DNA from: a virus
Taxonomy: Duplodnaviria; Caudoviricetes
IMG/VR virus record: IMGVR_UViG_3300037467_001807
Span: 1 to 60,658 of that record
DNA length: 60,658 bases
Direction: 5' to 3' (one strand)
Shown here piece after piece: positions 3,080-60,260 of the stretch. The notes under the pieces were generated by a model. The model had not been told where the DNA came from, ran no database searches, and worked only from the letters and a program-made list of their open reading frames with translations. How positions within the stretch are numbered: the stretch's first letter is position 1; every line of letters starts with the position of its first letter. The translations under genes were made by a program, and so were the position numbers.

Positions 3080-3081
3080 CG

Positions 3082-5029: not shown

Positions 5030-5063
5030 ATGATGTTCGGCGGCCGTTCGCGGAGGCGGCGGG

Positions 5064-37291: not shown

Positions 37292-37318
37292 TGATTCGCC
37301 CGTTAAGGGCGAGTGAAC
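37292..37318. promoter_or_regulatory. CtrA-box-like site plus adjacent GANTC site upstream of the late operon
   Basis: TTAA-GGGCGAG-TGAAC (37303-37318; one mismatch to TTAA-N7-TTAAC) and TGATTCG (37292-37298). Confidence 0.45.
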
Positions 37319-37950
37319 TACGGGGCCGGGCTCAGATAGGCGACCTCGACAACGGTTCCCCTGGCGCAGGGCCCTTCCATCATGAGGTGGGCCCGTTCGC
37401 CGCGCGGCGTCGCCAGGACCTTCCCGATGAAGCTGAACCAGGGTCCGGCCCTGACCTGGACCCGTTCCCCCTTCTTCGGCCGGTACGGTGTCCGGATATG
37501 ACGGGTGTAGTCGTAGTCGCCTCTCCGTTCGGCAACCTGGATCTCGAGGATCGCGATAACAGGGATCAACAGGGGCCGGTTGGCGCCGTCATCATCAGAG
37601 GTCCCGACGATGTCGTGGACACCCTCGGTGGCGCCAACGATGTGAAGGTCGTCTTCAGCGACAGTCACGAAGAGGTAGCCGGGGAAGAGCGGCCGGCTCA
37701 CCGGCTCCCGGTCCTGGAAGCGATCCAAGCGGGACCAGCGCGTCTCCATCGGCAGGAACACCGTGATCCCCTGCTCCTGGAGCGCAGCTGCCGCGGCCCG
37801 CTCCCGGCGTGTCGCCGTCCGCACCGCATACCAGCTCAGGATCCTGTTACCGCTCCGGTTCGGCTCCGGCTCACCGGGCCAGGGAAGGTCCGGACCGGGA
37901 TATCGGGCCAGGATCGAGGCTTCGTCAAAATCGGCAGGTCGGCAGTTCAT
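37318..37950 (-). CDS. NusG/RfaH-family antiterminator
   Basis: WYAVRT, FLPM, RPLFPGYLFV (NGN); KGERVQVRAGPW..FIGKV (KOW). Confidence 0.9.
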   Translation of the reverse strand: MNCRPADFDEASILARYPGPDLPWPGEPEPNRSGNRILSWYAVRTATRRERAAAAALQEQGITVFLPMETRWSRLDRFQDREPVSRPLFPGYLFVTVAEDDLHIVGATEGVHDIVGTSDDDGANRPLLIPVIAILEIQVAERRGDYDYTRHIRTPYRPKKGERVQVRAGPWFSFIGKVLATPRGERAHLMMEGPCARGTVVEVAYLSPAP

Positions 37951-38061
37951 CGTGGCCCCCGTGACATCGGGACCACGTCGGAAATCAGTGTGCCAGCGAA
38001 GGGTCGCTGAACAGGCTTAACCGTTCAAGAACGCGCGTCGTCGCACCCCTTCAGGGGCCAG

Positions 38062-38289
38062 CCTTCACGGTCTTCACGAAAAACAGGGGGGTATATCTAT
38101 ATCCCTATGAATCACATACCTCTGTGAAGACCGTGAAGACCGTGAAGACTGTCTCAATATGTTGATATATATAGATATTCCTACACTCTAAGGGGTATCG
38201 GTCTTCACGGTCTTCACGCCCTTCGTTTCCGAAACGGCGCGGTCTTCACCGTGAAGACCGGTACTGATGTGAAGAGCGGTGTGAAGACC
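38062..38289. repeat. Putative replication origin: about 11 GTGAAGACC iterons in both orientations around AT-rich tracts
   Basis: Tandem and inverted GTGAAGACC/GGTCTTCAC copies, TATATCTATAT and GATATATATAGATAT tracts. Confidence 0.75.
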
Positions 38290-38540
38290 GACCCGGCCTC
38301 AAAGGGGCCGGCGGATCCCGGATGCGGTCCTGATCCAGTGGCCGAGCCTGACCTGCATCTCGTCGCGACGAAGCAGCGGGCAGTCTGGCCCAGCGGCCAG
38401 CACGATCCAGGCGATGTAGCCGGCCAGCAACCGCTCGACCCTGGCATAGTGCCGGCGCAGGATGGCCCGGACGATATCGGGCGTAGCGGAGCGATCCCAA
38501 GCCTCAGCCAAGCCGCCGTCGTACTCGGGCATGACCTGGG

Positions 38541-38777
38541 TCATCGAAGATCACGCGGGACGTGGATCGTGACGACAACCGGCTCTGCGTGGACAACAGG
38601 TGGGGGAACCAGCGCAGCGAGCCGCCGGGCCTGCTCCGGTGTCATGACGAAGGGAAGGCTGATCTCACCGACAAGGGGTGGCAGCTCGGACTGAACGATG
38701 CCGCCCGACGCCCATGCCATCCGGTCGGCCGGGAACTGCGACAGCAGCTTCCGGGCCGCGGCCTCGGCCACAGTCAT
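38541..38777 (-). CDS. Hypothetical protein
   Basis: MTVAEAAARK...; packed operon. Confidence 0.45.
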   Translation of the reverse strand: MTVAEAAARKLLSQFPADRMAWASGGIVQSELPPLVGEISLPFVMTPEQARRLAALVPPPVVHAEPVVVTIHVPRDLR

Positions 38778-38860
38778 CAGGAGCCCGTCGATCCGCAGGG
38801 CCCGTTGCCGCCGTCTGAGCTGGAGGACCTGACGACGATGAAGGGTCCGCAGCCTAGCCA

Positions 38861-39097
38861 TCAGCTCAGGACTTCGAGGACGACGCCGCGGCAGATCACG
38901 CGCCTGTCCTCTAGCCGGAACTCCAGAACGGAACCGCTGAACGCCGGTTCGAGGCCATGATCGGTGATGGCGACGTGCACCGGCCGCATTTCCCAAACCC
39001 ACCTGCAGTAGCCGTGTTCGCGAAGCATCGGCATCATAGCCGTCCGCTCCCGGTCCCAGACCTCGCGGATCTGCTCTTCGGTCGGGGACTGCGTCAT
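38861..39097 (-). CDS. Hypothetical protein
   Basis: ATGA overlap with the upstream gene. Confidence 0.55.
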   Translation of the reverse strand: MTQSPTEEQIREVWDRERTAMMPMLREHGYCRWVWEMRPVHVAITDHGLEPAFSGSVLEFRLEDRRVICRGVVLEVLS

Positions 39098-39375
39098 AGC
39101 GGCTTCCCGATCTGCACCTCGAGCGGATGCGAGAGGTCGCCCTCGCCGACGACAACGATAAGATCACGCTTCAGGGCAGCGGACGCCAAGGCGTTGAACG
39201 CTCTCTGGGCCCGGCGAATTTCGCGCACCAGGTCCTCTTCCTTCTCCGGTATCGGCGGGTCGGCGGCCAGCACCCAAGCCTCGCCGGTCCAGATCCGGAC
39301 ACCATGTTCGGCGACCCAGATGTCGTCGATCTCGGGTTCCGCCGGCTGCTGCGACTGCTTCCAATAGGTGTTCAT
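39094..39375 (-). CDS. Hypothetical protein
   Basis: MNTYWKQ...; coupled to the next gene. Confidence 0.55.
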   Translation of the reverse strand: MNTYWKQSQQPAEPEIDDIWVAEHGVRIWTGEAWVLAADPPIPEKEEDLVREIRRAQRAFNALASAALKRDLIVVVGEGDLSHPLEVQIGKPL

Positions 39376-39429
39376 GCCTCGCACCTTACACTGTGGTCCG
39401 CCCGGATCGGCAATCGTCAGACAGCGCCA

Positions 39430-39600
39430 TCACCGGGGGTCCTTCACGATCTGCGTTGCATGCTCGAACCAGTCCTTCTTCGGCTGGCGAACCCAGGAGA
39501 GCCCGCAGGCGCAGGAGACCAAGACCGAGCCGTCAGAGGCGGTCGTGGCGGTCTTCCGCTTGGCGGGAACGCGCCGGCAATGGCGGCATTTAACGCGCAT
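39430..39600 (-). CDS. Small Cys-rich (zinc ribbon-like) protein
   Basis: CRHC...CACG; overlaps the upstream stop; SD-like GAGGGGAAGG. Confidence 0.45.
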   Translation of the reverse strand: MRVKCRHCRRVPAKRKTATTASDGSVLVSCACGLSWVRQPKKDWFEHATQIVKDPR

Positions 39601-39913
39601 CGGCCTTCCCCTCCTGTGAGAGGCCCGCGAGGGCGAGCCAAACGAACTTCGGCGTCAGGCTTGGATCAGCCTCATACTTCAGCCATGACGTGCGGCCGAT
39701 CCCGATAGCCTTGGCGGCGTCGGCCGAGGTCAGACCACGCGCCAGCCGCCACGCCTTCAGGTCGAGCACGGGTCGCGGCCCAGAGGCCCGGCGGCGCTGT
39801 AACTCGGCGAGCGAGGCGCGGGCTTCCAGCAGGAAGCGGTAGGCGGTCTCAACGTCGCGGCCCACAGAAAGCATGAGCGTGTCGCTATCGACCATGGATG
39901 GATCGTCGCTCAC
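39590..39913 (-). CDS. XRE-family HTH protein
   Basis: LKAWRLARGLTSADAAKAIGIGRTSWLKYE. Confidence 0.75.
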   Translation of the reverse strand: MSDDPSMVDSDTLMLSVGRDVETAYRFLLEARASLAELQRRRASGPRPVLDLKAWRLARGLTSADAAKAIGIGRTSWLKYEADPSLTPKFVWLALAGLSQEGKADAR

Positions 39914-40500
39914 CGCTTCCCCTCCTGCGGGTGGAAGGAGGCTGTACGGGAATCGATGAGGCCGGTCGCGCAAGCCCTCCAGAGGACGACATCGACTGTC
40001 CTGATCGCCAGCCCTGAAGCCACGGAGAGACGCTGGCACAGCGCCATGACTGTCTCGCCGTAGTGGTCGGCGAGACGCTGGAGATGGACGTCCGGCTTGG
40101 GGACGTCGACGCCGAAGTTCTTGGCGAGGTGGTACTTCGTGATCCCGCCGATGTGCGGCAGATCGTCGAGGTAGATGAGCTTCTGCTCTTCGGTCACGCA
40201 GCCGAGATAGCCGAGGTAGAGGTCGAGCTGGTTCGCCCAGATCGTGTCGATCGCCCTGGCCTTCAGCTTGTGACCGAACGCCGTCGAGGCGCTGCGCCCA
40301 TCCGCTAGAGCGGCCATGACGCGGTCGTAGATCAGCCGGGCAACAGTGTTCTTCATGCCGGAGTTGCAGATCACGAAGATCGCTTCCTCGGCGAAGTCTC
40401 CGGCGCTCTCCGGGGCGCCACAGCTCTCCGACCACTCGATGTCGTCCTCGCCCTGCTGACCCAGCGCACGCACGACAGCTGCGAAGGTCTCCGGTGTCAT
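39910..40500 (-). CDS. HhH-GPD superfamily DNA glycosylase-like protein
   Basis: LDDLPHIGGITKYHLAKNFG..KPDVHLQR and VDVVLW. Confidence 0.65.
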   Translation of the reverse strand: MTPETFAAVVRALGQQGEDDIEWSESCGAPESAGDFAEEAIFVICNSGMKNTVARLIYDRVMAALADGRSASTAFGHKLKARAIDTIWANQLDLYLGYLGCVTEEQKLIYLDDLPHIGGITKYHLAKNFGVDVPKPDVHLQRLADHYGETVMALCQRLSVASGLAIRTVDVVLWRACATGLIDSRTASFHPQEGKR

Positions 40501-40754
40501 GCTTCCCTCCTCAGGCAGCAGCCGCGCACCTGGTCGGCCTCGTCGTTGTCCCCATAGTCGCAGTCGCCGCAGACCGCGCACTCGTGCACGGGAACCGAGC
40601 AGCTGCAGAAGCCATCCTCCTGACAGCCAGCATTGCGACCGCCTATGGAATGCCAGTCGTGCCCCGCGACATCGCAGGCCTCGGCTGCGATCCGGCGGCG
40701 CAGGTGCTCTGCCGTCGCCTCGGCCTCGGATAGCTGCTCGCGGAGCGTGGTCAT
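40497..40754 (-). CDS. Cys-rich hypothetical protein
   Basis: GHDW...CSCSVPVHECAVCGDCDYG. Confidence 0.65.
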   Translation of the reverse strand: MTTLREQLSEAEATAEHLRRRIAAEACDVAGHDWHSIGGRNAGCQEDGFCSCSVPVHECAVCGDCDYGDNDEADQVRGCCLRREA

Positions 40755-40763
40755 CTCGGCCTC

Positions 40764-43061
40764 TTATGCTGCGCTGTACCAGGTCGTTTCCGTCCCGCCG
40801 CTCTCCGGCCGGACTTTCTCGATGCGGATCTGGCCGGCGTCGGCCAGCGAGCTGATCAGCTCCTTCAGGTCCTTGGCCTTGACCCGGTGCTGCATCACCC
40901 GGACCAGATCGCCATGCTTGATCCGGCCCTGGTCCTTCAGGGCGCGGAGCACCCGCTGGGCCTCGGCCTGATTCTGGGTGTCCGCCATGTAGTCGGAGGT
41001 TTCCGCCATCATCCGTTCCGCCGACCAGAGCGCGACGTCCCGGCCCCACTCCATGTCTTCGGCGGTGACGACAGGCGAACGGTAGTCGATGCCGATCGCA
41101 CGGATCGTGGCCAGACGCTGCGCCATCTCGACGGTCCTGGCGAGAAAGGCGAGGTCGCGCTCCCGGTCCTCGATGTAGCGACCGAAGTCGCGGTAGACGT
41201 CACGGGCGCCATCGCCCCAGTCGGCCGTGGTCAGCGGCTCATCGGCGATGCCGTTGTGGCTGGACGCCATCGCCAGGGCAGAGCCTGATCCGTACAGGGC
41301 CTGGAGGCCGGACTTGATCTCCAGGGGGACGTTGAAGGCATCCGCCTTCGGTTCCCGCTCCCGCGGCCTCTGCTGCGTCGAGATCAGCAGGAACCGGTTC
41401 AAGAAGCCGTTGTGGACGTCGCCACCCTCCAGCGAGGCGTAGAACTCCTCCGGCGTCGAGACACCATAGATGCTCAGCGCCGGGGCGTGGATCGGCTCCC
41501 CAGGCGACGACGCCCATTCCGGCGGGGTCATGGTCTGGAAGCTGGAGCCCCAGGCGGTTCGGAGGACCCCAGTGATCGCCTTCTCGTGCGGGCTGGCCCT
41601 GCGGTTGTTGATCCTGGCCAGGAAGGAGCCGAACTCGTCCATGGGACAGAGCGTCAGCGGATGCCGGGTCAGGCGCTTCACCACAGCCGACAGCGACATG
41701 AACTGGCTGGGTCCGAGGTGTGCCGTCATCCCAGCCGCCGCCAGCAGCCTCGCGATCTGCTGCAGCGCATGATCCTTGCCCGCCGAGGTCCTGGCCAAGC
41801 CGAGGACGTAGAGGTGGGTCCCGGTCCGGGTCGGTCCGGCATACTTCCGCCCGGCGGCTGTTCCGATGACGCTCAGCGCGGCGCCAAGGGCAAGACCGCG
41901 CTGCGGTCGTCTCGAGCTGTCCGCGATCCAGTCCGTGATCAGCCCGAGGAGCCCGGGCACGCGGGTCAGGACATCGTCGAGCTCGCCGGTCACTGGCGAG
42001 TGACTGGGTAGTGACAGTTCTGCCGGTTCCGGCTCGACGGTCGGCTGCGACCGCGCTTCCGGCACGAAGACAGGCGCTGCATCGACGAGCCCGAGCTGCT
42101 CCCGGAGCCACTGTGTCGCCTCGGCCTGCGGGACGCCGCGGGCTGCCATGACCAAGTCGATCGCGCTGTAGGTGTCGCCGGTACCGAAGTCCTTGATCCC
42201 GTTCGCCTGGATCGAGAGGTTCCGCTTCCGCTTCTGCAACGGCCGGCCCGACGAGCTGGGCCGCCAGACCGCAACTGCTTCGAATCCGCCTCTGGCTGGC
42301 CTGCAGTTGTAGAGGTCCAGCTGGGGAACCCAGTCCTGGAGACGGTTCAGCGCCTCGGCCTTAACCTCGGACCAGAAGTCGTCGTCGTCACTGATCTCGC
42401 GCGCCGGTCGGACCGGTTCCGAGGCGCGGTGTGCCGGACGATGATCCGGATCCCAGCCCAGCGCCTGCAGGGTATCCTCGAGCTTTTCGAGGTGGTCGGC
42501 TGTGAAGACCGGCAGTTCCGCGGCTGGAACGGGCCCGCGCAGCCAGCGGTAGGCCGCGCCTGTTTCGGGATGCACGCTCGGCGGAACGACGGTCTGTCTC
42601 GTCTCCGATCCGGTCAGGAGATCGACAAGGCGCCTCCCCTTCCCGGCCGGTTTCGTATGGTCGTCGTACGGCCTGGACTTGATCTCGGCCGGGGCCAGAT
42701 AGAACCTGGTCTCGCCCTTTCGCCCCTTCTTCACCATGGGCGACGGGGGGATCTGGCGCTGCAGCTCCTCCAGCTGGTCAGGATCCTCGGCATCGAGATC
42801 TAACGCGATGACCCTGTATTCGCCGACCTTGGTTCCCAAGACGACGGAGACGTTGGCGTCGGGGAAGTTCCGGGTCCAGAGCTGGAGCTGGAACTTGGTC
42901 GGAACCGCGTCCCTGAAGCGCTGCCACTGCGACATCGCGAACCAGCGGCCGGACCTGAACTCGCCCGGCATCTTGTCGCGCGGCATCGCCGGGATGGCGT
43001 GGTAGCCCATCCCGATCAGCTCAGGCGCACCCCTGGCGTATGGTGACTGTAACTCCCCCAC
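40764..43061 (-). CDS. Primase-polymerase fused to helicase-like (DUF3987-type) domain
   Basis: IALDLD, QTVVPPSVHPETG..YRW (Prim-Pol); ARTSAGKD, MDEFG, GFLNRFL; GTG start at 43061 inferred. Confidence 0.85.
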   Translation of the reverse strand: MGELQSPYARGAPELIGMGYHAIPAMPRDKMPGEFRSGRWFAMSQWQRFRDAVPTKFQLQLWTRNFPDANVSVVLGTKVGEYRVIALDLDAEDPDQLEELQRQIPPSPMVKKGRKGETRFYLAPAEIKSRPYDDHTKPAGKGRRLVDLLTGSETRQTVVPPSVHPETGAAYRWLRGPVPAAELPVFTADHLEKLEDTLQALGWDPDHRPAHRASEPVRPAREISDDDDFWSEVKAEALNRLQDWVPQLDLYNCRPARGGFEAVAVWRPSSSGRPLQKRKRNLSIQANGIKDFGTGDTYSAIDLVMAARGVPQAEATQWLREQLGLVDAAPVFVPEARSQPTVEPEPAELSLPSHSPVTGELDDVLTRVPGLLGLITDWIADSSRRPQRGLALGAALSVIGTAAGRKYAGPTRTGTHLYVLGLARTSAGKDHALQQIARLLAAAGMTAHLGPSQFMSLSAVVKRLTRHPLTLCPMDEFGSFLARINNRRASPHEKAITGVLRTAWGSSFQTMTPPEWASSPGEPIHAPALSIYGVSTPEEFYASLEGGDVHNGFLNRFLLISTQQRPREREPKADAFNVPLEIKSGLQALYGSGSALAMASSHNGIADEPLTTADWGDGARDVYRDFGRYIEDRERDLAFLARTVEMAQRLATIRAIGIDYRSPVVTAEDMEWGRDVALWSAERMMAETSDYMADTQNQAEAQRVLRALKDQGRIKHGDLVRVMQHRVKAKDLKELISSLADAGQIRIEKVRPESGGTETTWYSAA

Positions 43062-43069
43062 GGCCGGAC

Positions 43070-43288
43070 CTAGAACGGCGCTGTGCTGTTCTGAGGCGGT
43101 TTCGCCGCGTAGATGAAGCTGTAGCCGACGACCTTGAACAGGAAGTCCTGCCACTCCTGCGCGCTGAGCGTCGCCAGATCGGTCTTCCCGATCTCGTCGA
43201 GGTACTGACCGGCGACGTCGCCGGCCTTCAGGACAGCAGCGGTGTCGATGACGAAGACCGGATCAGGGTTCTTGTCGTTCTTGGCCAT
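43070..43288 (-). CDS. DUF6511-like protein
   Basis: AGQYLDEIGKTDLATLSAQEW..F; ends APF; adjacent to primase. Confidence 0.6.
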   Translation of the reverse strand: MAKNDKNPDPVFVIDTAAVLKAGDVAGQYLDEIGKTDLATLSAQEWQDFLFKVVGYSFIYAAKPPQNSTAPF

Positions 43289-43364
43289 GGCGGTCTCCGG
43301 ACAGGCAGGACAGGGGCAGTAGGCGCCGGCCGGGTGGCAGCCCGAGCGGTGCTGGAGGCGGCGG

Positions 43365-43784
43365 TCATCCCAGCGCCTCCCTGAGATCGGTAGCGGTGAC
43401 GTCGAAGAGCGCGGCTACGGACCGGACGGTCCAGCCGGCATCAAGGAACCAGCGGCAGTACCTGAGCTTGCGCGGCGTCACCGGGTTGTAGGGTTCCCTG
43501 GCGCCGGCCGGCGGGTCGACGCGGTCCCAGACCTGAGACCAGGCGCCGGAGCTCGCCGACCGCGGCTCCTCAGGGTCCGTGACGGAGACGGCAAACTCGG
43601 TCCCGGCCTCCGGCGCCGGGAAGTCGATGATGACCGCCCCGGGGGCCGGAGCGGCACGAGCGGCAATGAGCCTGTCGATCCGGCGTTGCAGACCAGGGGC
43701 GCCGACGCCCAGGATCGAGGCGATCGACTGGACCGACATCTTGGCGTCGACCATGGCGAGGAGATTGCGGTCGGCCTCGGTCAC
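43365..43784 (-). CDS. Protein with two HTH-like segments
   Basis: SVQSIASILGV and WTVRSVAALFDV. Confidence 0.55.
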   Translation of the reverse strand: MTEADRNLLAMVDAKMSVQSIASILGVGAPGLQRRIDRLIAARAAPAPGAVIIDFPAPEAGTEFAVSVTDPEEPRSASSGAWSQVWDRVDPPAGAREPYNPVTPRKLRYCRWFLDAGWTVRSVAALFDVTATDLREALG

Positions 43785-43990
43785 GCCTGCGCCCTCCCCG
43801 CGTTGATCAGGCGTCTGCAGGCCGGACAGCCGACGAAGGTCGTCTGGTCCGTCATCAGGGCTGTTGTGGGCTGGTCGGGCATGATGAAACCGAGCCTGGA
43901 GACCCGGCAGCGCGGCAGCTCCCGATCACCGCCCTGCCAGGACGGCAGGTAGTGGATGGACCTGAGGTGGAGGCGGGGTCCGGTGTTCAT
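43781..43990 (-). CDS. Hypothetical protein
   Basis: ATGA/GTGA coupling on both sides; H..C...CPAC. Confidence 0.5.
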   Translation of the reverse strand: MNTGPRLHLRSIHYLPSWQGGDRELPRCRVSRLGFIMPDQPTTALMTDQTTFVGCPACRRLINAGRAQA

Positions 43991-51622: not shown

Positions 51623-51813
51623 CAGACCTGCTCCCCCTGCAGCAGCGCGTCGAGGTGACCCTTCGCGAGCTGGAGCGACAGGTGCGCGGAGAAGGCGTCG
51701 CCGGCCTTGAAGTGGGCGACGGCCTCCATGGTCTTTTCCAGGACCTGGCAGCAGACCGAACGCTCGGCCAGGTAGGTCCCATCGGTCTCGACTTGACGTG
51801 CCGAGGCGTTCAT
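51622..51813 (-). CDS. Hypothetical protein
   Basis: MNASARQ...; TGATG coupling. Confidence 0.5.
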   Translation of the reverse strand: MNASARQVETDGTYLAERSVCCQVLEKTMEAVAHFKAGDAFSAHLSLQLAKGHLDALLQGEQV

Positions 51814-51903
51814 CGTCGCGGCTCCGCTACGATGCTCCAAGGAGCGTTGAGGTGGAGGCCCGGCGGGTCAGGTCGTCCAAACAGGACCCGCCGGGCAGCT
51901 AAG

Positions 51904-52404: not shown

Positions 52405-52406
52405 GG

Positions 52407-53207: not shown

Positions 53208-53716
53208 TACGATCTGTCCTCTGATTGTGGTGGCTCCTGCATGAACCAGCCGCCCGCGGAGCCTTCAGAGGCGAGCTGGAATTGGATGAACAACGGGGCC
53301 GCCGGCATCACGGCGATGCGGGCCAGGCTGTCGCGTTGTGGCGACCAGGCGGCGGCGAAGCCGACAACCTTGGAGTCGTCCTCGATGACGCCGTGCTCGA
53401 CCAGCAGGTCGAACAGGGCCTTGATCCGGTTGTCGACATCTGCGGCGCCGTTGGCGCGCTCGACACCGACCAGGATCACGACGTCGCCTCTGACAGGCTC
53501 CGGATTCTGCAGCTTCAGCCGCCAGCCGGCATGGCCGCGCCAGTCGTCATAGAGCTTGGTCCGGACCCGCCCCTTGCCGGGCACGTTCCGGAACATCGCG
53601 TTCACCGAGGGCGGCGCCGGAACGACGAGCTGCGTGATGGAGGACGGCGCCAGGACGCCGCCCTCCGTGCACACCGGCCCCGACGTGGCCCCTGGAATGG
53701 ATTGGTGGACCGTCAT
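53207..53716 (-). CDS. rusA: RusA-like Holliday junction resolvase
   Basis: PPSVN, DVDNRIKALFDLL..GVIEDD. Confidence 0.9.
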   Translation of the reverse strand: MTVHQSIPGATSGPVCTEGGVLAPSSITQLVVPAPPSVNAMFRNVPGKGRVRTKLYDDWRGHAGWRLKLQNPEPVRGDVVILVGVERANGAADVDNRIKALFDLLVEHGVIEDDSKVVGFAAAWSPQRDSLARIAVMPAAPLFIQFQLASEGSAGGWFMQEPPQSEDRS

Positions 53717-54141
53717 TGTGGCGGCCCCTCAAACAGCCTCAGCTGTTCCTCTTCTTCTGCAACTCCAGCCAGGCGATACGAACGGCCTTCCACAAGGCCC
53801 TCAATCGCATCCAGATGGCTGCGGGTCGCTTCGAGCTCCCTCGCAAGCCGCGCCTCCCTCTCGGTCAGTTCAGCCAGCACCGGCGCGATCTCGGGCGCAA
53901 GCACGGCTCGCCACACGTTGTTCCCGAAGCGCCGGACGATGGCGGCCATCGTCTCGTCGTTCGGCCAGTGATCTTCGAACAGGTTGCGCGCCGTGCGGTC
54001 GGAGACCCCGATGTCGCGGGCAAGCTGCTGGTGACGACCATAGGCGCTGTGGCCATAGACCGATCTCAAGAACGCCCCGAGCCGATGCCGCGGAAGCGTT
54101 TGGCGATTTCCAGCCATGCTGTGGACCCCGATCGCTGTCAT
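53713..54141 (-). CDS. HTH + coiled-coil regulator (CII-like position)
   Basis: QLARDIGVSDRTARNL...WP. Confidence 0.65.
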   Translation of the reverse strand: MTAIGVHSMAGNRQTLPRHRLGAFLRSVYGHSAYGRHQQLARDIGVSDRTARNLFEDHWPNDETMAAIVRRFGNNVWRAVLAPEIAPVLAELTEREARLARELEATRSHLDAIEGLVEGRSYRLAGVAEEEEQLRLFEGPPQ

Positions 54142-54715
54142 TTCTGACCTCGACGAGGGGCGCTGCGGCGCGAGGGACGGAGGACCAGGCGGACCCGATC
54201 AGGACGGACAGCGGCTGGCAGGCCGCAGGCAGCAGAGAAATCTACCGGGACCGGCTTGGCAGGGCTGGACCGGACCGAACCAGGCATCGAGCCCGGCCAG
54301 GGGACTGGAACCCCGGCCGGGCTCTGGCGCGCCTCCAGGGGAAAGAGCCGGAGGGCGTGCGTTGAAGTCGGCGGCGTCACGTAATGGGTAAGGGAAATCT
54401 CGCCTTCAGGATGAATTTTCAGTTGGCCTTCATAGCTGTCACGGCGATGATTTCGCGTGCCACGCGTACCCGGTTCCAATTTCCCGCCGCGCGACGAACG
54501 CATCATGCGGATCGCGATGGCGTCGCTCATCCTCGGATTGAAGGACAGCGAGAAGGCGACGCGGCGGTGCCGGAAACGGGTGCGCCGGGCTATCGAGATA
54601 CTCGAGGGCGGCGCCACGCCGGTGACAGCGCCCTTCCCGGACCAGGACGGAGCATACGCCGTCGCATGGCTGCGTCGCGGCTGCTTCCAGTGCCGGAGAT
54701 GTCCGGGCGCGTAGA

Positions 54716-54937
54716 TCATGCCGCGGCTTCCTGGCTCCGCGGATCGGCGCCCCTGGCCAGCTCGTCGAGCGACGCGACATCGAGATCGACGAGCGCCTGC
54801 CAGTATTCTCCAGGGATGCTGTTGCGGTCGGCCCAGCGCTGCGGTGTCGACTGGTGGACCTCGATGCCGGCGGCGGCGAGATCCCGCGCGAGCTTCGCAG
54901 CCCCGTGGTCCTGAACGATCTTCTGGTGCGTCCGCAT
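54716..54937 (-). CDS. Cro-like repressor
   Basis: GAAKLARDL...STPQRW..RNSIP.EYW; divergent from CI. Confidence 0.8.
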   Translation of the reverse strand: MRTHQKIVQDHGAAKLARDLAAAGIEVHQSTPQRWADRNSIPGEYWQALVDLDVASLDELARGADPRSQEAAA

Positions 54938-54949
54938 GAAGGCGAAGAT

Positions 54950-54986
54950 ACGACATTATGTGCTAACGGCAAGCACAATTTGTCGT
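54950..54986. promoter_or_regulatory. Right operators (two 15-bp sites) overlapping the cro promoter
   Basis: ACGACATTATGTGCT and AGCACAATTTGTCGT; minus-strand TTGCCG-N16-TATCTT 7 nt before the cro ATG. Confidence 0.8.
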
Positions 54987-55021
54987 TAGCCCGGCAGGAC
55001 GTCGATTGGCAGCTTCGTCGC

Positions 55022-55612
55022 ATGTCGATCGGGACACGGATCAAGAAGGCGCGCGAGGCTGCAGGCTGGTCACAGGGGCGCATCGCCAAGGCCGTCGGCA
55101 AGGAACAGACGACCGTCAGCTCCTGGGAGCGCGGCCGCACCGAACCAACCAGAGAAGATGTGATGCGGATCGCGGATGCGCTCTGCATCCCGGCTGCGAC
55201 ATTGGAGCTCGACGAGCTACGACCGGAACTGACGCGTCCGAAGGTACGACTCGTCGGGTACGTCGGAGCAGGCGCAGAAGCGCACTTTGCCTCGGCGGAC
55301 GACCCCGCCGAAGAAGTCGACGCACCCGAGGGAAGTACCGTGAACACCGTAGCCGCAGAAATCCGCGGCGCCAGCTTAGGCAAGGCTTTCGATCGATGGC
55401 TCGTCTTCTATGACGATGTCCGCTCGCCGGTCACTCCAGACCTCCACAACCAGCTCTGCGTCGTCGGAACCGGCGACCAGGTCCTGGTGAAGATCCTGCG
55501 ACCCGCTGGCGCACCGGATCGCTTCCACCTGATCTCCAACGCCGACGAAGAACCCCTCTTCGACCGAGAGGTCTTGTGGGCCGCTAAGGTCAAGAACCTG
55601 AAGCCGAGATAG
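55022..55612 (+). CDS. cI: CI-like repressor (XRE HTH + S24-like domain)
   Basis: RIKKAREAAGWSQ..IA..VG....TVSSWERG..EP; VGYVGAG, RGAS, VK. Confidence 0.9.
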   Translation: MSIGTRIKKAREAAGWSQGRIAKAVGKEQTTVSSWERGRTEPTREDVMRIADALCIPAATLELDELRPELTRPKVRLVGYVGAGAEAHFASADDPAEEVDAPEGSTVNTVAAEIRGASLGKAFDRWLVFYDDVRSPVTPDLHNQLCVVGTGDQVLVKILRPAGAPDRFHLISNADEEPLFDREVLWAAKVKNLKPR

Positions 55613-55632
55613 GGTCTCGGACCGGCTGATTC

Positions 55633-55692
55633 ACGACGCCTTGTCGTAGGTCAGCACATTTTGTGCTTGCCTGCCTTAGCACATTTTGTCAT
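55633..55692. promoter_or_regulatory. Left operators (three 15-bp sites) and early promoter
   Basis: ACGACGCCTTGTCGT, AGCACATTTTGTGCT, AGCACATTTTGTCAT; TTGCCT-N17-CATTGT. Confidence 0.8.
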
Positions 55693-55720
55693 TGTCTCTC
55701 CAACGACGCGGAGAGACCAG

Positions 55721-55993
55721 ATGCCGGACGGCAGCTTCTTCAACACCGCCTGCGAGATCGTGGCGACGCGGCCGCCGCTTCCGATCCGGAAGCTCAAGCC
55801 GGCACGCCACCTCGGCGAGTATGCCGCCGACCTACACATCGAGCGCGCCGGTGACGGTTACGCGCTGGTGGTGGTCAGCCACTGCATCGATCGCAACGGT
55901 GACAAGGACACCTTCACCGAGACGGTGAGCCGTCATGCCAGCCTCGGCGATGCCGTGGCCGCGATGCAGACCTTCGGCCCGGAGGCGGCGTGA
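55721..55993 (+). CDS. Hypothetical early protein
   Basis: GGAGAG SD; first gene after the operators. Confidence 0.7.
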   Translation: MPDGSFFNTACEIVATRPPLPIRKLKPARHLGEYAADLHIERAGDGYALVVVSHCIDRNGDKDTFTETVSRHASLGDAVAAMQTFGPEAA

Positions 55994-56157
55994 TGCGCGA
56001 CCTCAATCGCCTCATCGACATCGTCGCCGACGCCGAGGGAGCCGGCTGGGACCTCACGCATCCGCGGCTGCTCGACCGAGCCCGGAAGCGGCTCTGGGAC
56101 ATCCTCTGGGCGCGTGACCCGGAACTTGCGGAAACGATCTACGGAAAGGCGGCGTGA
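55993..56157 (+). CDS. Hypothetical early protein
   Basis: TGATG coupling on both sides; not in the ORF track. Confidence 0.6.
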   Translation: MRDLNRLIDIVADAEGAGWDLTHPRLLDRARKRLWDILWARDPELAETIYGKAA

Positions 56158-56354
56158 TGGAGCAGGTCACCCACTACAACTCGTCCAAGGGGCCGGTGGA
56201 GATCGCCTCCATGCCCCTGAAGTACGCGACGAACGCCTGCGAGAAGCTGAAGCGGGAACGCGCCGACGACAGCCGGGACAGCGAGATCGCCGCCCTCGAG
56301 GCCCACATCGCGAAGGTCCAGGCCGAGATCGAGGCTCAAGAGGCCGCGTCCTGA
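56157..56354 (+). CDS. Hypothetical early protein
   Basis: Coupled; YNSSKG.V.I..M...Y..NA motif and coiled coil. Confidence 0.65.
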   Translation: MEQVTHYNSSKGPVEIASMPLKYATNACEKLKRERADDSRDSEIAALEAHIAKVQAEIEAQEAAS

Positions 56355-56356
56355 CC

Positions 56357-56548
56357 ATGGACCTGGCGAAGGTCATGCGCGCCCTGAAGGCGATGGTCGA
56401 GGAGACCAACGGCATCTCGCCGATGCCGGTCGGCCTCGGCTTGGCCCGGTACCAGGCGCTCACGGCAGTCGCCGAAATCGAGGGGCACGCCGCTGCGGCG
56501 CGGCTAACCCCGCCACGTCCGTTCGCCGCTGCAGAACCGAGGAACTGA
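56357..56548 (+). CDS. Hypothetical early protein
   Basis: MDLAKVMRAL...; packed operon. Confidence 0.55.
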   Translation: MDLAKVMRALKAMVEETNGISPMPVGLGLARYQALTAVAEIEGHAAAARLTPPRPFAAAEPRN

Positions 56549-56549
56549 A

Positions 56550-56933
56550 ATGAACGTCATCGAGAAGTCCGCCCGGCAAGGCGACGTCATGCTGGTCCGG
56601 ATCGACAAGCTCCCGGAAGGCCTGATCCCGACGGAACGGGACCGGCTGGGCCGGATCGTCCTGGCGCACGGCGAGAAGTCCGGCCATGGCCACGCCATCC
56701 GCGATCCCTTCGTCTGCTCCTTCCGCCTCGCCACAACGGAGCCGGATCCGACCGGCGTCAGCGGCGGCGTCGACTACATCGAGGTCGGCGGTTCCGGCCC
56801 GGCGACGCTGAGCCACGAATACCAGAGCGGCGCCATGGCGGAACACGAGCCGATCCAGCTCCCGCCGGGGATCTACAAGATCGCGCTGCAGCGGGAATAC
56901 ACGCCGGCCGAAGTGGTCCGCGTCGTCGATTGA
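56550..56933 (+). CDS. His-rich beta protein (RQGDV family), partner of the DUF6745-like gene
   Basis: RQGDV, LAHGEKSGHGH, LSHE...EHEPIQLPPGIY...QREY. Confidence 0.8.
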   Translation: MNVIEKSARQGDVMLVRIDKLPEGLIPTERDRLGRIVLAHGEKSGHGHAIRDPFVCSFRLATTEPDPTGVSGGVDYIEVGGSGPATLSHEYQSGAMAEHEPIQLPPGIYKIALQREYTPAEVVRVVD

Positions 56934-56993
56934 TCGCGCCAGGCGCGGCTTCCGGGCCGCGCCCCCTCCCTTCCCTTCCTGGAGCCTGAAGCT

Positions 56994-58376
56994 GTGACCA
57001 AGCTCGCGCTGACGCCGGAACGGCGCCGCACCATCGAAGAAGCCCGTGACGAGTGGCTGCGGATCGGTCTCAGCACCGACCCGGCGGACTTCGGGGCCGC
57101 CGAAGCTGCGATCACGACGCTCTACGAGAGCATCGGGAAGAAGCGGCCGTACTTCGTAAAGCTCAGCTCCCCGCTCGCGGCCGAACTTTACATTAACCTC
57201 TACTGCGCTACCTGGCCGGCCGCCGCCGGGCCCGGCGGCCAAAAATCAAAGAGCCACACCGGGGGCCAGCTCAGGGACCAGCTCTGGGACCAGCTCGGGG
57301 ACCAGCTCTGGGACCAGCTCAGGGACCAGCTCGGGGACCAGCTCTGGGGCCAGCTCAGGGACCAGCTCGGGGACCAGCTCTGGGGCCAGCTCGGGGACCA
57401 GCTCTGGGACCAGCTCTGGGACCAGCTCAGGGGCCAGCTCTGGGACCAGCTCAGGGGCCAGCTCAGGGACCAGCTCAGGGACCAGCTCGGGGACCAGCTC
57501 TGGGACCAGCTCTGGGACCAGCTCAGGGACCAGCTCGGGGACCAGCTCTGGGACCAGCTCGGGGGCCAGCTCGGGGACCAGCTCGGGGACCAGCTCTGGG
57601 GCCAGCTCTGGGACCAGCTCAGGGACCAGCTCGGGGACCAGCTCAGGGGCCAGCTCTGGGAATCGCGGCTGCGGTTCACCTGGACCTGGTTCTACGGCGC
57701 CTGGGATTACCTCTGGCAGTGGTACGACGGCGGCCGCCGCGTCGGCATGGTGCTGCCGGAGAAACTCAACCAGCAGCTCGACGCCCATCTCACGGTCTGC
57801 CGCAGCATCGGCCTCTGGTACCCGTTCGACGACTTCGTCATCCTCACCGACCGCCCGGACACGATCCGGCGAGACACCCGGAACCGGCTGCACTGCGATG
57901 ACGGGCCGGCGCTCCGTTATCGCGACGGCTACAGCCTCTACTTCCTGAACGGCCTGCCGGTGACCCGGCAGATCGTGGAAGCTCCGGAGACGCTGACGGC
58001 GCACCAGGTGCGCGACGAGACGAACGCCGAGATCCGGCGGCACATGCTGGATCGCTATGCCGGTCTCCGCGGCTCCGCGGCGGCCGGGAAGTGGCTCGCC
58101 GACATCGGAGCGAAGCCGATCAGCTCCGTGGACATCACGGCGAAGATGCAGCCCTCTGGGCTCGCGATCTGGAAGCTCCAGAACGGCGACGCGCCGGTCC
58201 TGTGCAAGCTCTATCGCGCCGACATGCCAGACGACGAGCCGCTGGTGCTGCTCTTCGTGGTCTGCACCTCGACGGCCAAGGAGGTCTTCCTACGGGTCCC
58301 GCCTGACTTCACCGACGCCGCGCGCGCCCGGGACTGGACCTTCGGCGAGAGCCTCGCCGAAGCCGTGGAGACCTGA
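56994..58376 (+). CDS. DUF6745-like protein with 33 QL(W/R/G)(D/G) repeats
   Basis: RLHCDDGPALRYRDGY..Y..NG, NAEIRR, V.CTST...LRVPP...A.DWTFG. Confidence 0.85.
   Translation: MTKLALTPERRRTIEEARDEWLRIGLSTDPADFGAAEAAITTLYESIGKKRPYFVKLSSPLAAELYINLYCATWPAAAGPGGQKSKSHTGGQLRDQLWDQLGDQLWDQLRDQLGDQLWGQLRDQLGDQLWGQLGDQLWDQLWDQLRGQLWDQLRGQLRDQLRDQLGDQLWDQLWDQLRDQLGDQLWDQLGGQLGDQLGDQLWGQLWDQLRDQLGDQLRGQLWESRLRFTWTWFYGAWDYLWQWYDGGRRVGMVLPEKLNQQLDAHLTVCRSIGLWYPFDDFVILTDRPDTIRRDTRNRLHCDDGPALRYRDGYSLYFLNGLPVTRQIVEAPETLTAHQVRDETNAEIRRHMLDRYAGLRGSAAAGKWLADIGAKPISSVDITAKMQPSGLAIWKLQNGDAPVLCKLYRADMPDDEPLVLLFVVCTSTAKEVFLRVPPDFTDAARARDWTFGESLAEAVET
57267..57662 (+). repeat. 33 x 12-bp tandem repeat CAGCTC(T/A/G)GGG(A/G)C
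   Basis: Counted directly, 396 bp; last unit ends GAA. Confidence 0.95.
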
Positions 58377-58379
58377 GCG

Positions 58380-58646
58380 ATGCCGAACCGCATCGACAGG
58401 ATCAGGCGCAGCCAGGACCTTGTCCGGGACGGGATCGAGAGCCCCTTCGCCAGGCCGGTGCAGGAGCCGGTCTCGCCTGAGGTCGAGGCCTGGGCGCGCC
58501 AGCTCTGCATCGGGTTCGGTGACAGCCCGGACCGGCAGATCGGCAACCCGCCTCATCCGGCCTGGCGCGCCTGGGTCGGCTACGCCGAGCTCGCGGTGAA
58601 GGCCGCGGCAACGCTGGGCTACCGGAAGCAGGAGCTTGCCGCATGA
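58380..58646 (+). CDS. Hypothetical protein
   Basis: Packed operon; ARQLC..GDSPD...PAWRAW. Confidence 0.6.
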   Translation: MPNRIDRIRRSQDLVRDGIESPFARPVQEPVSPEVEAWARQLCIGFGDSPDRQIGNPPHPAWRAWVGYAELAVKAAATLGYRKQELAA

Positions 58647-58756
58647 CCCGGTTCGACTGGCGCCTGGTGCAGGCGATGCGGCTTGCAGCCGCCGCCGGCT
58701 TCGTCCTGCTCATCGTCGAGGTGATGTGGCTCCTGGCGCCGGAGCGGCTGCCATGA
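58643..58756 (+). CDS. Small single-TM protein
   Basis: ATGA coupling on both sides; hydrophobic core. Confidence 0.45.
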   Translation: MTRFDWRLVQAMRLAAAAGFVLLIVEVMWLLAPERLP

Positions 58757-58971
58757 CGCGCACCGAATACGAGGTCCTGACCCCGGTCGGCACGGTCCTG
58801 ATGCGGACGCCTGATGTCGAGATCGCCCGCGCCTTCGTCCGCAACCGGTCCAAGAAGGTCCCCGGTCTCCATCTCCGGATCGAGGCTGAGGAGACCACGG
58901 TGAAGCGCAGCCGCGTCGCGGTCCGTCCGAAGCGCCGGCCGGCGCCTCAGCTCAGGGTCGTGTCGGCATGA
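58753..58971 (+). CDS. Hypothetical protein
   Basis: ATGA coupling. Confidence 0.55.
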   Translation: MTRTEYEVLTPVGTVLMRTPDVEIARAFVRNRSKKVPGLHLRIEAEETTVKRSRVAVRPKRRPAPQLRVVSA

Positions 58972-59180
58972 CGGTCCTGACCCGCCACCAGTACGAGCTG
59001 CTCGACCGCATCGTCGATGCCGGGCCACGCGGCCTGCAGGTCTCCGACCTCGCCATGGGCGATGTCATCGGCCTCGCCATCGACGGGCTCGTCAGCATCG
59101 ACAGCGCCAGCCGGCGCGCCACGGCCACGGCCGAGGGCCTCGGCTTCTACCTCACCTCGAACCTCAGGAGCTTGGCATGA
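58968..59180 (+). CDS. Small wHTH-like protein
   Basis: LTRHQYELL...GLV...ATAEG. Confidence 0.55.
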   Translation: MTVLTRHQYELLDRIVDAGPRGLQVSDLAMGDVIGLAIDGLVSIDSASRRATATAEGLGFYLTSNLRSLA

Positions 59181-60013
59181 ACGCCCACGTCAAAACCCCG
59201 GAAGCCGCCGAAGACCAGGTGCCAGCGCTGATCGAGGTCACGGAACAGACCGCAGCCGATGTTCTCAAGGACGAAAAGAAGTTCGAGGCCTTCTACGGCC
59301 AGGTCGAAGCGGCGACGAAGACGCTGGTCGCCGACATCTCCAGCAAGGAGGGCCGCGAGGCCATCGCCTCGATGGCCTACAAGGTCTCGAAGACCAAGAC
59401 CGCGATCGACAAGATCCGGCTCCGGATCACCGAGGACTGGCGGAAGCAGACCGAGGAGGTCAACAAGGCCGGGAAGCGGATCAGCGCCCGGCTCGACGCC
59501 CTGCGCGACGAGGTCCGGAAGCCGCTGACGGAATGGGAGGCCACGGAAAAGGCCCGACAGGATGCCGTGGACGGCATCATGGCGACGTTCCGCGATGTGG
59601 CGCCCAAGTTCTCCGACACCGCCGAGGCCGTGGCGACCCGTCTCGCCGCGGTGAAGGCCACGGTCATCTCGCAAGAGACCTTCCGAGACCAGTACCCCGA
59701 GGCGATGCACCTGCAGGGTCAGGCCATCCAGGCGCTGACGGAGGCGCATGCCGCGCTGGTGCGCCAGGAAGCGGACCAGCGTGAGCTGGCGGAACTGCGG
59801 GCCAGCCGCGGCCAGGCCGAGACGACGGTCCAGGCTCCCCTCGCGGTCCCCACGGGTTCGGATGCTCCGGAGCCGGTCCAGGACCGCGGCGTCGCGACTG
59901 CCGAGACCCTGGCTGACCTGCAGCAGCGGGCTGGGCTGACACTGCAGCAGGCCAAGGCCGTGGTCATGGCGATCACCGCCGGCACGATCCGTCACGTCCG
60001 CATCGAGATCTGA
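59177..60013 (+). CDS. Phage coiled-coil protein
   Basis: DISSKEGREAIASMAYKVSKTKT...LRDEVRKPLTEWE; C-terminal G.IRHVRI. Confidence 0.75.
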   Translation: MNAHVKTPEAAEDQVPALIEVTEQTAADVLKDEKKFEAFYGQVEAATKTLVADISSKEGREAIASMAYKVSKTKTAIDKIRLRITEDWRKQTEEVNKAGKRISARLDALRDEVRKPLTEWEATEKARQDAVDGIMATFRDVAPKFSDTAEAVATRLAAVKATVISQETFRDQYPEAMHLQGQAIQALTEAHAALVRQEADQRELAELRASRGQAETTVQAPLAVPTGSDAPEPVQDRGVATAETLADLQQRAGLTLQQAKAVVMAITAGTIRHVRIEI

Positions 60014-60023
60014 GCCCCCAGGC

Positions 60024-60260
60024 ATGGACTATCACAGCGCCGATACCCGCCTGCCAGGCGAGGCTCCCGAGGTCACGCGCTGGACCGCGGCGCGCAAGGA
60101 CGAGCTGCTGCGTCGGATCCGGCGCGGCGAGCTCTCCGAACCCGAGGCCTGCGCCCGCTGGGGCTTCACGCCTGAGGAGATTGCGGCCTGGAGGCAGCGG
60201 TCGGCGCGGTTCGGGTTCCAGGGCCTCAAGGCGACAACGCTGCAGGTGAAACGGCCGTGA
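60024..60260 (+). CDS. sciP: SciP (DUF1153) CtrA-inhibitor homologue
   Basis: RW...RK.E.....R.G.LS..EAC.R...T.EE..AW.....R.G..GL..T..Q pattern matches recalled Caulobacter SciP. Confidence 0.8.
   Translation: MDYHSADTRLPGEAPEVTRWTAARKDELLRRIRRGELSEPEACARWGFTPEEIAAWRQRSARFGFQGLKATTLQVKRP

Follow-up and report, generated by a model that had tools for sequence, protein, structure and literature searches.

We analyzed the whole of IMG/VR virus record IMGVR_UViG_3300037467_001807 (Duplodnaviria; Caudoviricetes), a stretch of 60,658 nucleotides referred to here as the window, and found that it encodes homologues of two regulators of the alphaproteobacterial cell cycle, GcrA and the CtrA inhibitor SciP (the DUF1153 family), in two early operons that run in opposite directions. 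Other viral records also pair GcrA with DUF1153, and in most of them the two genes again point in opposite directions. A preliminary description of the window had pointed to both genes and had further proposed that the phage reads the host circuit through CtrA-like boxes and GANTC sites in its control regions.

GcrA- and SciP-Family Genes Occupy Opposite Early Operons of a Temperate Phage

The two genes and the elements of the switch between their operons are as follows.

47599-48102, minus strand: GcrA-family protein, 167 amino acids (PF07750, E = 2e-18, 67.7 bits against a cut-off of 26.9)
60024-60260, plus strand: DUF1153/SciP-family protein, 78 amino acids (PF06627, E = 5.3e-15, 55.8 bits against a cut-off of 23.5)
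55022-55612, plus strand: CI-like repressor (domain match to the helix-turn-helix family HTH_3)
54716-54937, minus strand: Cro-like protein (carph-isopro domain, 37 bits against a cut-off of 38)
54972, 55653 and 55678 (span 54972-55689), unstranded: three copies of the operator word AGCACAWTTTGT, in the two early control regions

We read the window as the whole genome of a temperate lambda-like phage that infects a high-G+C soil alphaproteobacterium. CheckV assigns the record, which was taken whole, a completeness of 100; the genome measures 60.5 kb, with a G+C content of 68% overall and 64–72% along its length. The first and last 148 bases are identical except for one mismatch, which indicates that the genome is circular or terminally redundant, and the open frame at 60257 continues into base 181. 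The only host-linked relatives found were Bradyrhizobium prophages, with a helicase identity of 42%.

In a gene map drawn from frame-specific G+C, the repressor and cro-like genes face away from each other. One copy of AGCACAWTTTGT lies between them (54972) and two lie just past the repressor gene; the word has three matches in the genome compared with 0.02 expected, a count reached in 0 of 100 shuffles. The window has two divergent early operons under the control of the phage's own operator word. The rightward, cro-side operon begins with genes for RusA, AAA_24, DUF669, a PD-(D/E)XK nuclease, endonuclease VII, and a DEAD/ResIII helicase, continues through the GcrA gene, a helicase-like/methylase fusion, a Prim-Pol protein, and an iteron cluster, and ends with a NusG/RfaH-like protein, the small and large terminase, and the virion genes. 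The leftward, repressor-side operon opens with small genes of unknown function, a DUF6745 protein, a phrog_1376 protein, and the DUF1153 gene, followed by a HerA-like ATPase, a 403-residue protein with multiple helix-turn-helix units, an HTH_17 protein, and a tyrosine integrase. The preliminary placement of the GcrA homologue in the replication operon and of the SciP homologue in the opposite early operon was borne out, and the terms “replication operon,” “opposite early operon,” and “origin” suit this layout.

The Phage DUF1153 Protein Is Distantly Related to Chromosomal SciP

The DUF1153 protein covers positions 24–85 of the 87-position PF06627 profile, has “CtrA inhibitor SciP” (NF051866) as its best NCBIfam model, and matches structure 2jrt_A with an E-value of 1.1e-7. 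The core motifs of the family (RW..RK, G.LS, EAC, EE..W, and G..GL) are all present, and 23 DUF1153 sequences (four viral and 19 chromosomal, the query included) share 11 invariant and 8 nearly invariant columns. We compared the protein with 401 genomes sampled across the class to which a Bradyrhizobium genome belongs and found matches in 171 of them, a tally that includes one unpublished genome (G253). Because 165 of these 171 genomes match once (the other six match twice), the family is essentially the single-copy SciP of Alphaproteobacteria. Identity to the chromosomal matches listed is 30–46%, and on this comparison the phage protein appears to be an equally distant cousin of all chromosomal SciPs, with no close donor in the 401-genome sample. 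On the Pfam model, the SciP of Bradyrhizobium, which is the top DUF1153 locus of its genome, scores 136.6 bits. An N-terminal V-I-G-P-D-G(-x-P-L-T) stretch found in 23 of 32 chromosomal copies occurs in none of five viral copies; since it is also missing from 9 of the 32 chromosomal copies, it does not define the family. The sole relative recovered in a homologue search, P0003, is 69% identical and lies on a 1.2-kb contig. A single-protein scan of viral contigs returned no DUF1153 relative, and PHROGs holds no family for the protein.

The Phage GcrA Copy Retains the Architecture of Caulobacter GcrA

The GcrA copy covers positions 2–143 of the 155-position PF07750 profile and consists of an N-terminal DNA-binding head, a linker, and a C-terminal CCCH zinc domain, the architecture of Caulobacter crescentus GcrA (structures 7ye1, 5yiu, and 5yix); both domains align with 7ye1_G (E = 7e-15). 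Individual residues were compared by alignment to 7ye1_G and 5yiu_A, with residue roles taken from the available part of PMC5887438. The base and backbone contacts R33, N34, K39, and R42 are identical in the phage protein, which also keeps W3, S20, S22, T32, K119, W120, P121, I122, and P125. All four zinc ligands are retained with a spacing one residue shorter than in Caulobacter (C-X14-C-X8-C-X2-H versus C-X14-C-X9-C-X2-H). To judge from these alignments, the protein is a GcrA by descent and by architecture. Substitutions elsewhere in the head include W15 to H, A21 to Y, and H41 to D. Chromosomal Bradyrhizobium GcrA scores 206 bits on the Pfam model that gives 67.7 bits for the phage copy, and a single-protein scan of viral contigs returned only one GcrA relative.

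In five Bradyrhizobium-type proviruses (loci L007, L008, L009, L010, and L014), small open reading frames (ORFs) adjacent to the helicase gene match only the C-terminal zinc part of GcrA, the one that interacts with sigma. These matches fall below the Pfam cut-off and some of the ORFs contain in-frame TGA codons; they may be head-less GcrA fragments.

Pairing of GcrA with DUF1153 Recurs on Diverged Viral Backbones

The preliminary description had called for a co-occurrence survey, which revealed that the pairing is not a one-off. Among the 12 DUF1153-encoding viral records found by a family-alignment search, five (G441, G472, G464, G469, and G466) encode a GcrA above the Pfam cut-off. In the reverse direction we surveyed 50 of the 80 GcrA-encoding IMG/VR records found, namely those with contigs longer than 22 kb, and two of them (G441 and G426) encode DUF1153. 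For comparison, relatives of the window's DEAD/ResIII helicase were examined, and 9 of 90 such loci hold a GcrA match by local hidden Markov model (HMM), four of them strong. The excess of GcrA among DUF1153 records over helicase-relative loci (5/12 versus 9/90, Fisher p = 0.011) is suggestive, the two search spaces being unequal (whole records versus 20-kb loci). A tblastn search of 50,697 deposited phage records gave a single DUF1153 match, in Erythrobacter phage XM05 (40.7% identity), and three weak matches to the GcrA copy.

The two genes run in opposite directions in six of seven paired records (the window, G441, G426, G464, G472, and G466), and they are separated by 11.4–11.9 kb in the window, G441, G472, and G464. 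In G464 and G472 (loci L158 and L167), a 41%-identical homologue of the cro-like gene lies between them, while G426 shares with the window the order of GcrA followed by the methylase fusion. The 20-kb flanks otherwise share almost nothing with the window, indicating that the paired genes sit on diverged backbones. Of the 50 GcrA records, 14 contain a methylase gene, and in 6 one is found no more than 3.5 kb from the GcrA gene. On the DUF1153 side of G464 and G472 (L158 7515-8204; L167 7331-8113) we noted by eye a gene with a cytosine-C5 methylase-like N-terminal motif.

Proposed Early Host Reprogramming and Its Alternatives

Lambda-like phages keep host-directed functions in their early operons, among replication and recombination genes. 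Because both the GcrA and the DUF1153 gene lie in early operons among replication and recombination genes, we tentatively prefer the view that the two proteins act as early host-reprogramming factors, ahead of phage-directed regulation and of receptor shut-down; from the sequences, host takeover is plausible. Cellular GcrA acts as a monomer, serving as a sigma-70 cofactor that recognizes methylated sites close to promoters (PMC4647560 and PMC5887438, the former likewise available in part). Cellular SciP, as described in the available part of PMC4083442, is a G1 factor that shuts off CtrA-activated S-phase promoters; it binds CtrA or a DNA word, and its targets are flagellar, pilus-secretion, and chemotaxis promoters. 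Under early host reprogramming, the GcrA-like protein would ride host RNA polymerase via its CCCH zinc domain and bias transcription, and its DNA head may read a methylation state or a sequence other than that of Caulobacter GcrA. The SciP-like protein would in turn damp CtrA-activated promoters for motility, pili, chemotaxis, and division.

Several observations weigh against this view. In NCBIfam, the GcrA copy scores 65.3 bits on the GcrA equivalog (NF050816, “sigma 70 cofactor GcrA”), whose cut-off is 280, and the DUF1153 protein scores 54.4 bits on the SciP equivalog, whose cut-off is 100. Both floors of the methyl pocket are altered in the GcrA copy (I37 to C and G38 to S, C53/S54 in its own numbering). 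None of the 13 other GcrA-like heads, recovered by HMM or with the window protein and free of pattern bias, has lost G38, and position 37 in those heads is I, L, or C; the change of I37 to C also occurs in locus L180 and in one truncated Bradyrhizobium paralogue. (The 80 GcrA loci were collected partly with the pattern NAVIGKVH, which makes their count of 81/81 for “IG” circular, and it was not used.) Eight Caulobacter residues, K119, W120, D124, G129, F130, F132, Y142, and Y151, are those at which substitution abolished binding to sigma-70 region 2 (PMC5887438, in its available part). Only K119 and W120 are kept in the phage copy, whereas the remaining six read L, I, G, C, H, and V, respectively. 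The C-terminal basic patch is also absent, the protein ending eight residues after the His ligand. Given the altered pockets and sigma-70 contacts, neither reading of methylated GANTC nor a hold on sigma-70 should be assumed for the GcrA copy. The surveys bear on the pairing in the same direction: 48 of the 50 GcrA phages lack DUF1153, 7 of the 12 DUF1153 records lack GcrA (some of these records being incomplete), and DUF1153 is absent from 11 whole records and 90 loci of helicase relatives, so the pairing is not obligatory. In addition, several of the paired records may share ancestry and hence not represent independent events.

The changed sigma-70 contacts and methyl pockets also fit an explanation in which the two are ordinary transcription factors directed at the genome of the phage itself, built on DNA-binding scaffolds borrowed from host families (for example, an activator of middle or late genes and a small regulator of the helix-turn-helix type), with no effect on the host cell cycle. 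We regard this as somewhat unlikely. It draws further support from the GcrA-type head being repeated about six times in a second phage protein that matches phrog_323 (“transcriptional regulator”), from the exact TGATTCG at the start of the late operon, and from the zinc-domain-only GcrA fragments beside the helicase in related prophages. However, the 20 largest of at least 60 direct-repeat families include no short intergenic motif that could serve as a common target word, candidate target sites are few (2 TGATTCG and 30 GANTC in the genome), and the DUF1153 core, with its 11 invariant columns, is shared with chromosomal SciP.

The place of the SciP-like gene in the repressor-side operon raises a different alternative, a lysogenic-conversion or exclusion factor that damps flagellar and pilus genes and thereby removes receptors, either of other phages or of the phage's own progeny, with the GcrA gene unrelated. 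Flagellar, pilus-secretion, and chemotaxis promoters are what cellular SciP controls, its overexpression inhibits or stops motility (PMC4083442), and pili and flagella are used by many phages of these hosts (PMC9437464, in the part available). The operators at 55653 and 55678, however, lie between the repressor gene and the SciP-like operon, a position from which we infer that the operon is probably repressed in the lysogen, as is lambda's left operon. We consider this alternative distinctly unlikely.

A bolder form of early host reprogramming would make the window a member of an old temperate lineage of alphaproteobacterial phages carrying a two-part cell-cycle mimic at fixed positions, a short SciP-like CtrA inhibitor in the repressor-side early operon together with a GcrA-like polymerase cofactor in the replication operon. 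The SciP-like protein would then be the first viral anti-CtrA factor, stopping division and appendage synthesis, and the GcrA-like protein, with its remodeled methyl pockets, would direct sigma-70 polymerase according to a methylation state unlike the host's. We offer this as speculation and consider it rather unlikely.

CtrA Boxes and GANTC Sites in Control Regions Occur at Chance Level

The sites put forward in the preliminary description, and the elements that surround them, are the following.

37292-37317, unstranded: TGATTCG (37292) overlapping a 6-bp hairpin, with TTAA-N7-TGAA(C) at 37303, just after the NusG-like gene
37318-37950, minus strand: NusG/RfaH/UpxY-like antiterminator before the packaging genes (PF02357, 60.7 bits; UpxY family, 66.6 bits against a cut-off of 100)
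38017-38024, plus strand: TTAACCGT, one mismatch from the CtrA half-site, at chance level
38069-38289, both orientations: origin-like iteron cluster, 10 copies of GGTCTTCAC with at most one mismatch, and an A+T-rich core holding a GANTC at 38109
55628-55632, unstranded: GANTC (TGATTCA) between the repressor stop and the left operators, not matching YGAKTCK

We scored CtrA sites as consensus words against 100 shuffles of the genome. TTAA occurs six times in the genome, and TTAA-N7-TTAA has no exact match. With up to one mismatch the full box matches once, at 37303, compared with 0.18 expected, and at least one match arose in 16 of 100 shuffles; the TTAA of this box forms the loop of the 6-bp hairpin (TCGCCC / GGGCGA), a few bases past the NusG-like stop. 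TGATTCG, the GcrA consensus (PMC4647560), occurs twice in the genome compared with 6.3 expected. Thus, both strings proposed before the late operon, the TTAA-N7-TGAAC box and TGATTCG, are present, but at or below chance level. The half-site proposed before the NusG-like gene is likewise at background: TTAACCGT lies at 38017, and the half-site TTAACCAT with up to one mismatch has five matches compared with 4.0 expected, and at least five in 39 of 100 shuffles. Single near-consensus CtrA boxes in a genome of 68% G+C are no evidence.

For GcrA- and CcrM-dependent promoters, the criterion was a YGAKTCK lying around −20 or between +2 and +30 relative to a sigma-70 promoter. TGATTCG at 37292 fits YGAKTCK. 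No sigma-70-type promoter was called near 37292 or 55628 in a scan with the Escherichia coli consensus, which makes this weak evidence. The GANTC sites noted beside the left operators (55628) and in the iteron core (38109) are both present, but neither fits YGAKTCK, and GANTC is depleted across the genome. Ten of the 30 GANTC sites fit YGAKTCK in one orientation compared with 7.5 expected (p = 0.20). In L158, the one relative examined, there is no GANTC between a repressor-like ORF (2625-3287) and the next ORF (3683).

Sequence reads were compared with the window over 36900-56800. A second soil metagenome run (X2) contains 8.2- and 10.1-kb contigs with no differences from the window, and short identical pieces occur in rhizosphere, plant, and soil runs of other studies (X3–X5). 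Among the sequencing runs listed as containing the phage, none was an RNA run. The differences listed fall mostly in the methylase gene, within a pile-up of contigs of other organisms, and the reads therefore offer no natural variation from which to judge site conservation.

The preliminary description joined these sites into a full model in which host CtrA∼P and GcrA/CcrM read sites on the phage and the phage copies push the host towards an S-phase-like state; we consider it very improbable. In its favor, the late-operon leader, the stretch before the NusG-like gene, the iteron region, and the surroundings of the left operators do contain the strings, other phages are known to have promoters under CtrA control (PMC9437464), and a repeated early promoter of phage XM05 with two GANTC indicates that phages can use such sites. 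The description had itself named sites at background as grounds for refuting the model, and every site class scores at or below shuffle expectation. The TTAA forms the loop of a hairpin, and neither of the two regions scanned yielded a sigma-70-type promoter. The push towards S phase does not follow in any simple way either, because SciP, a G1 factor, leaves CtrA at the origin alone (PMC4083442, in the part available). We infer that the control regions carry the proposed CtrA boxes and GANTC sites by chance and that these have no part in the mechanism.

GANTC Is Avoided in the Window and in Related Phages

GANTC is the target of CcrM. The window holds 30 GANTC sites, whereas 319 ± 16 are expected from dinucleotide shuffles, 179 from base composition, and 163 from a trinucleotide model, so that GANTC is not enriched but strongly avoided, by a factor of 3 to 10. 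By the trinucleotide model it is the most depleted of the 256 XYNZW words in the window, and likewise in G441, G426, and G001. Synonymous-codon shuffling of 66 genes gave an expectation of 61.7 ± 5.9 sites (minimum of 42 in 300 shuffles) compared with 22 observed, while seven control palindromes treated in the same way had observed-to-expected (O/E) ratios of 0.89–1.24. The three control-region sites are survivors rather than collected sites.

Enrichment of GANTC in intergenic DNA, the pattern anticipated in the preliminary description, was not found. Seven of the 30 sites lie outside curated genes, compared with 12.2% for 96 control words (binomial p = 0.065, rank 5th); curated genes leave 11.3% of the genome, where the GANTC O/E is 0.36 compared with 0.15 in genes. 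Two of the seven intergenic sites have another explanation, one lying in a tRNA-like attachment-site stretch (4892) and the other in a hairpin followed by a T run (29927).

The avoidance extends to other records. GANTC is almost completely removed from G001, an 84,383-bp viral record (1 site compared with 241 expected), and from loci L194 (1 versus 37) and L234 (3 versus 70), and it is reduced in G426 (61 versus 262) and G441 (79 versus 193). Across 73 GcrA-bearing viral loci (seven of 80, shorter than 8 kb, were dropped), the median O/E is 0.36. A link between the GcrA gene and GANTC avoidance was considered and rejected. Among helicase relatives with a G+C of at least 0.58, the median O/E is 0.25 in the 31 loci without a GcrA match and 0.51 in the nine with one (one-sided Mann-Whitney p = 0.998), 36 of 90 loci shorter than 8 kb having been dropped; a GcrA gene beyond the ±10-kb flanks would be missed. 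This matched control indicates that related high-G+C phage loci generally avoid the CcrM target, irrespective of GcrA.

We consider it probable that GANTC avoidance arises from restriction or methylation pressure in hosts whose CcrM targets GANTC, independent of the phage GcrA gene. Such pressure could come from a HinfI-type or methyl-dependent nuclease or from the cost of stray methylated sites. The rank of GANTC among the XYNZW words, its deficit under codon shuffling, and the stronger depletion of loci without a GcrA match all argue for this explanation. Against it, Bradyrhizobium prophage relatives are only about 2-fold depleted, and the O/E ratios of samples from phiCbK (0.38) and CcrColossus, which is without GcrA (0.70), run the opposite way, with n = 1 for each. 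In these phages, then, GANTC is avoided, not collected.

Neighboring Genes and Other Features of the Window

The surroundings of the two genes and the remaining features comprise the following.

48099-49763, minus strand: DEAD/ResIII helicase directly upstream of the GcrA gene (domain match)
44778-47309, minus strand: helicase-like N-terminal part fused to an N6/N4 DNA methylase, directly downstream of the GcrA gene (PF01555, 48.1 bits)
59177-60013, plus strand: phrog_1376 protein of unknown function adjoining the DUF1153 gene (151.7 bits)
1443-2654, plus strand: 403-residue protein of the leftward operon with about six tandem GcrA-head/Myb-like helix-turn-helix repeats (PF07750, 33 bits)
3637-4910, plus strand: tyrosine integrase followed by a stretch resembling the 3′ half of a tRNA (PF00589, 47.4 bits; GANTC at 4892)

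The nearest relatives of the helicase have 57–65% protein identity and lie mostly on short contigs. In L180, the closest with flanking sequence (57% identity), a GcrA-like ORF likewise follows directly after the helicase gene. The helicase-like part of the fusion protein has a weak match to the SNF2-like helicase DrmD of DISARM (E = 0.0097, residues 263–422), and the whole fusion is 68% identical over 982 residues to an ORF located 1.5 kb beyond the GcrA gene of G426. Related genes are annotated “DNA helicase/methylase” in actinophages, and stretches of the fusion gene share about 75% DNA identity with genes so named in Arthrobacter and Mycobacterium phages. The segment at 44.9-46.9 kb attracts many contigs from other organisms in soil metagenome runs. 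The phage methylase was considered as a CcrM analogue and rejected, its score on the CcrM equivalog being 23.4 bits against a cut-off of 830; its five Protein Data Bank matches have TTHA0409-type, M.MboIIA, and N4-cytosine enzymes as the best and include no CcrM chain.

The phrog_1376 protein is 38% identical to an ORF adjacent to DUF1153 in G426, so that the two genes are neighbors there as well. The 403-residue protein exceeds the Pfam GcrA cut-off, has additional matches to Myb and sigma-70 region 4, and matches phrog_323 with 183 bits over three stretches. Its repeats are about 48 residues long, start at W31, W80, W128, W178, W233, and W289, and follow the pattern W-x2-E-x3-L ... IA-x2-LGR ... 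LGL. Within the DUF6745 gene (56994-58376), about 35 tandem 12-base units at 57145-57700 on the plus strand encode a (G/R/W)DQL run.

The tRNA-like stretch (4819-5063) lies directly after the integrase gene and contains a T-arm-like GGTTCGAATCC and an acceptor end. It probably contains the phage attachment site attP and, read by eye, may derive from tRNA-Ser; ARAGORN called no whole tRNA there. A single-protein scan of viral contigs returned no relative of the integrase. TTAA-centered imperfect palindromes flank the NusG/RfaH-like gene at 37292-37320 and 38003-38030, each with TGAAC/GTTCA, and may be sites for a phage factor.

Relation to Known Systems

Phage GcrA homologues have been known since 2012 and none, to our knowledge, has a demonstrated function; Caulobacter phages Senya and Shash reportedly encode GcrA homologues as well. 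Those described include gp222 of phiCbK and other phage homologues (Gill et al. 2012, PMC3556154, available in part). The window resembles phiCbK in encoding a PF07750 protein, one that in phiCbK was proposed to alter the host replicative state (PMC3556154). Unlike gp222, however, the GcrA copy described here belongs to a 60-kb temperate lambda-like phage rather than a 200-kb virulent or jumbo-type phage, lies beside a helicase and a methylase fusion, has changed pocket and sigma-70 residues, and is paired with a SciP-family gene. Compared with Caulobacter crescentus GcrA, it keeps the head-linker-CCCH arrangement, R33/N34/K39/R42, and the zinc ligands, and it departs in I37C, G38S, H41D, and W15H, in six of eight sigma-70 residues, in zinc-finger spacing, and in lacking the C-terminal basic patch. 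The DUF1153 protein shares its Pfam family and core motifs with chromosomal SciP (NF051866; structures 2jrt and 2oa4) but differs in its low identity, its score below the equivalog cut-off, and the absence of the V-I-G-P-D-G stretch.

The CtrA-regulated “lytic deferment” phages (Mascolo et al. 2022, PMC9437464) are likewise alphaproteobacterial phages tied to the cell-cycle circuit. Their CtrA sites are clustered, high-scoring, and experimentally bound, whereas the window has no exact site and one near-match at chance level. That report gives no positional signal for GcrA, SciP, or DnaA sites, and its available part mentions no phage sciP gene. Among deposited phages, the protein XM05_97 of Erythrobacter phage XM05 (PV416404.1, annotated hypothetical) shares the DUF1153 match. 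Unlike the window, XM05 has no GcrA match, and the region around its DUF1153 gene is rich in GANTC (54 sites compared with 26.6 expected in 6.2 kb), whereas the window is GANTC-poor. In this early region (L144, PV416404.1 76929-83105), 42 of the 54 GANTC sites lie outside annotated genes. A promoter-like word, AAAAAGTGCTTGACC-GAATC-...-CCTAGAAAC-GAATC, occurs in at least 12 copies before small genes, in which one GANTC immediately follows the −35-like TTGACC and another the −10-like part, and TTAAC words, including an exact TTAACCAT, lie near the repeats. These repeats resemble a family of phage promoters that depend on methylation or GcrA.

According to the preliminary description, the SciP and GcrA combination is not known to have been characterized in a phage, and this agrees with our search: in the literature consulted, some of it available in part, neither a SciP/DUF1153 homologue encoded by a phage nor a pairing of one with GcrA came to light. 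Phage GcrA homologues and CtrA-controlled phage promoters are thus already known, and a phage SciP homologue paired with GcrA appears to be new. The recurrent pairing could show how temperate phages of soil and rhizosphere bacteria seize their hosts' cell cycle, and its changed methyl pockets make the phage GcrA a natural variant for asking how the reading of N6-methyladenine is encoded.

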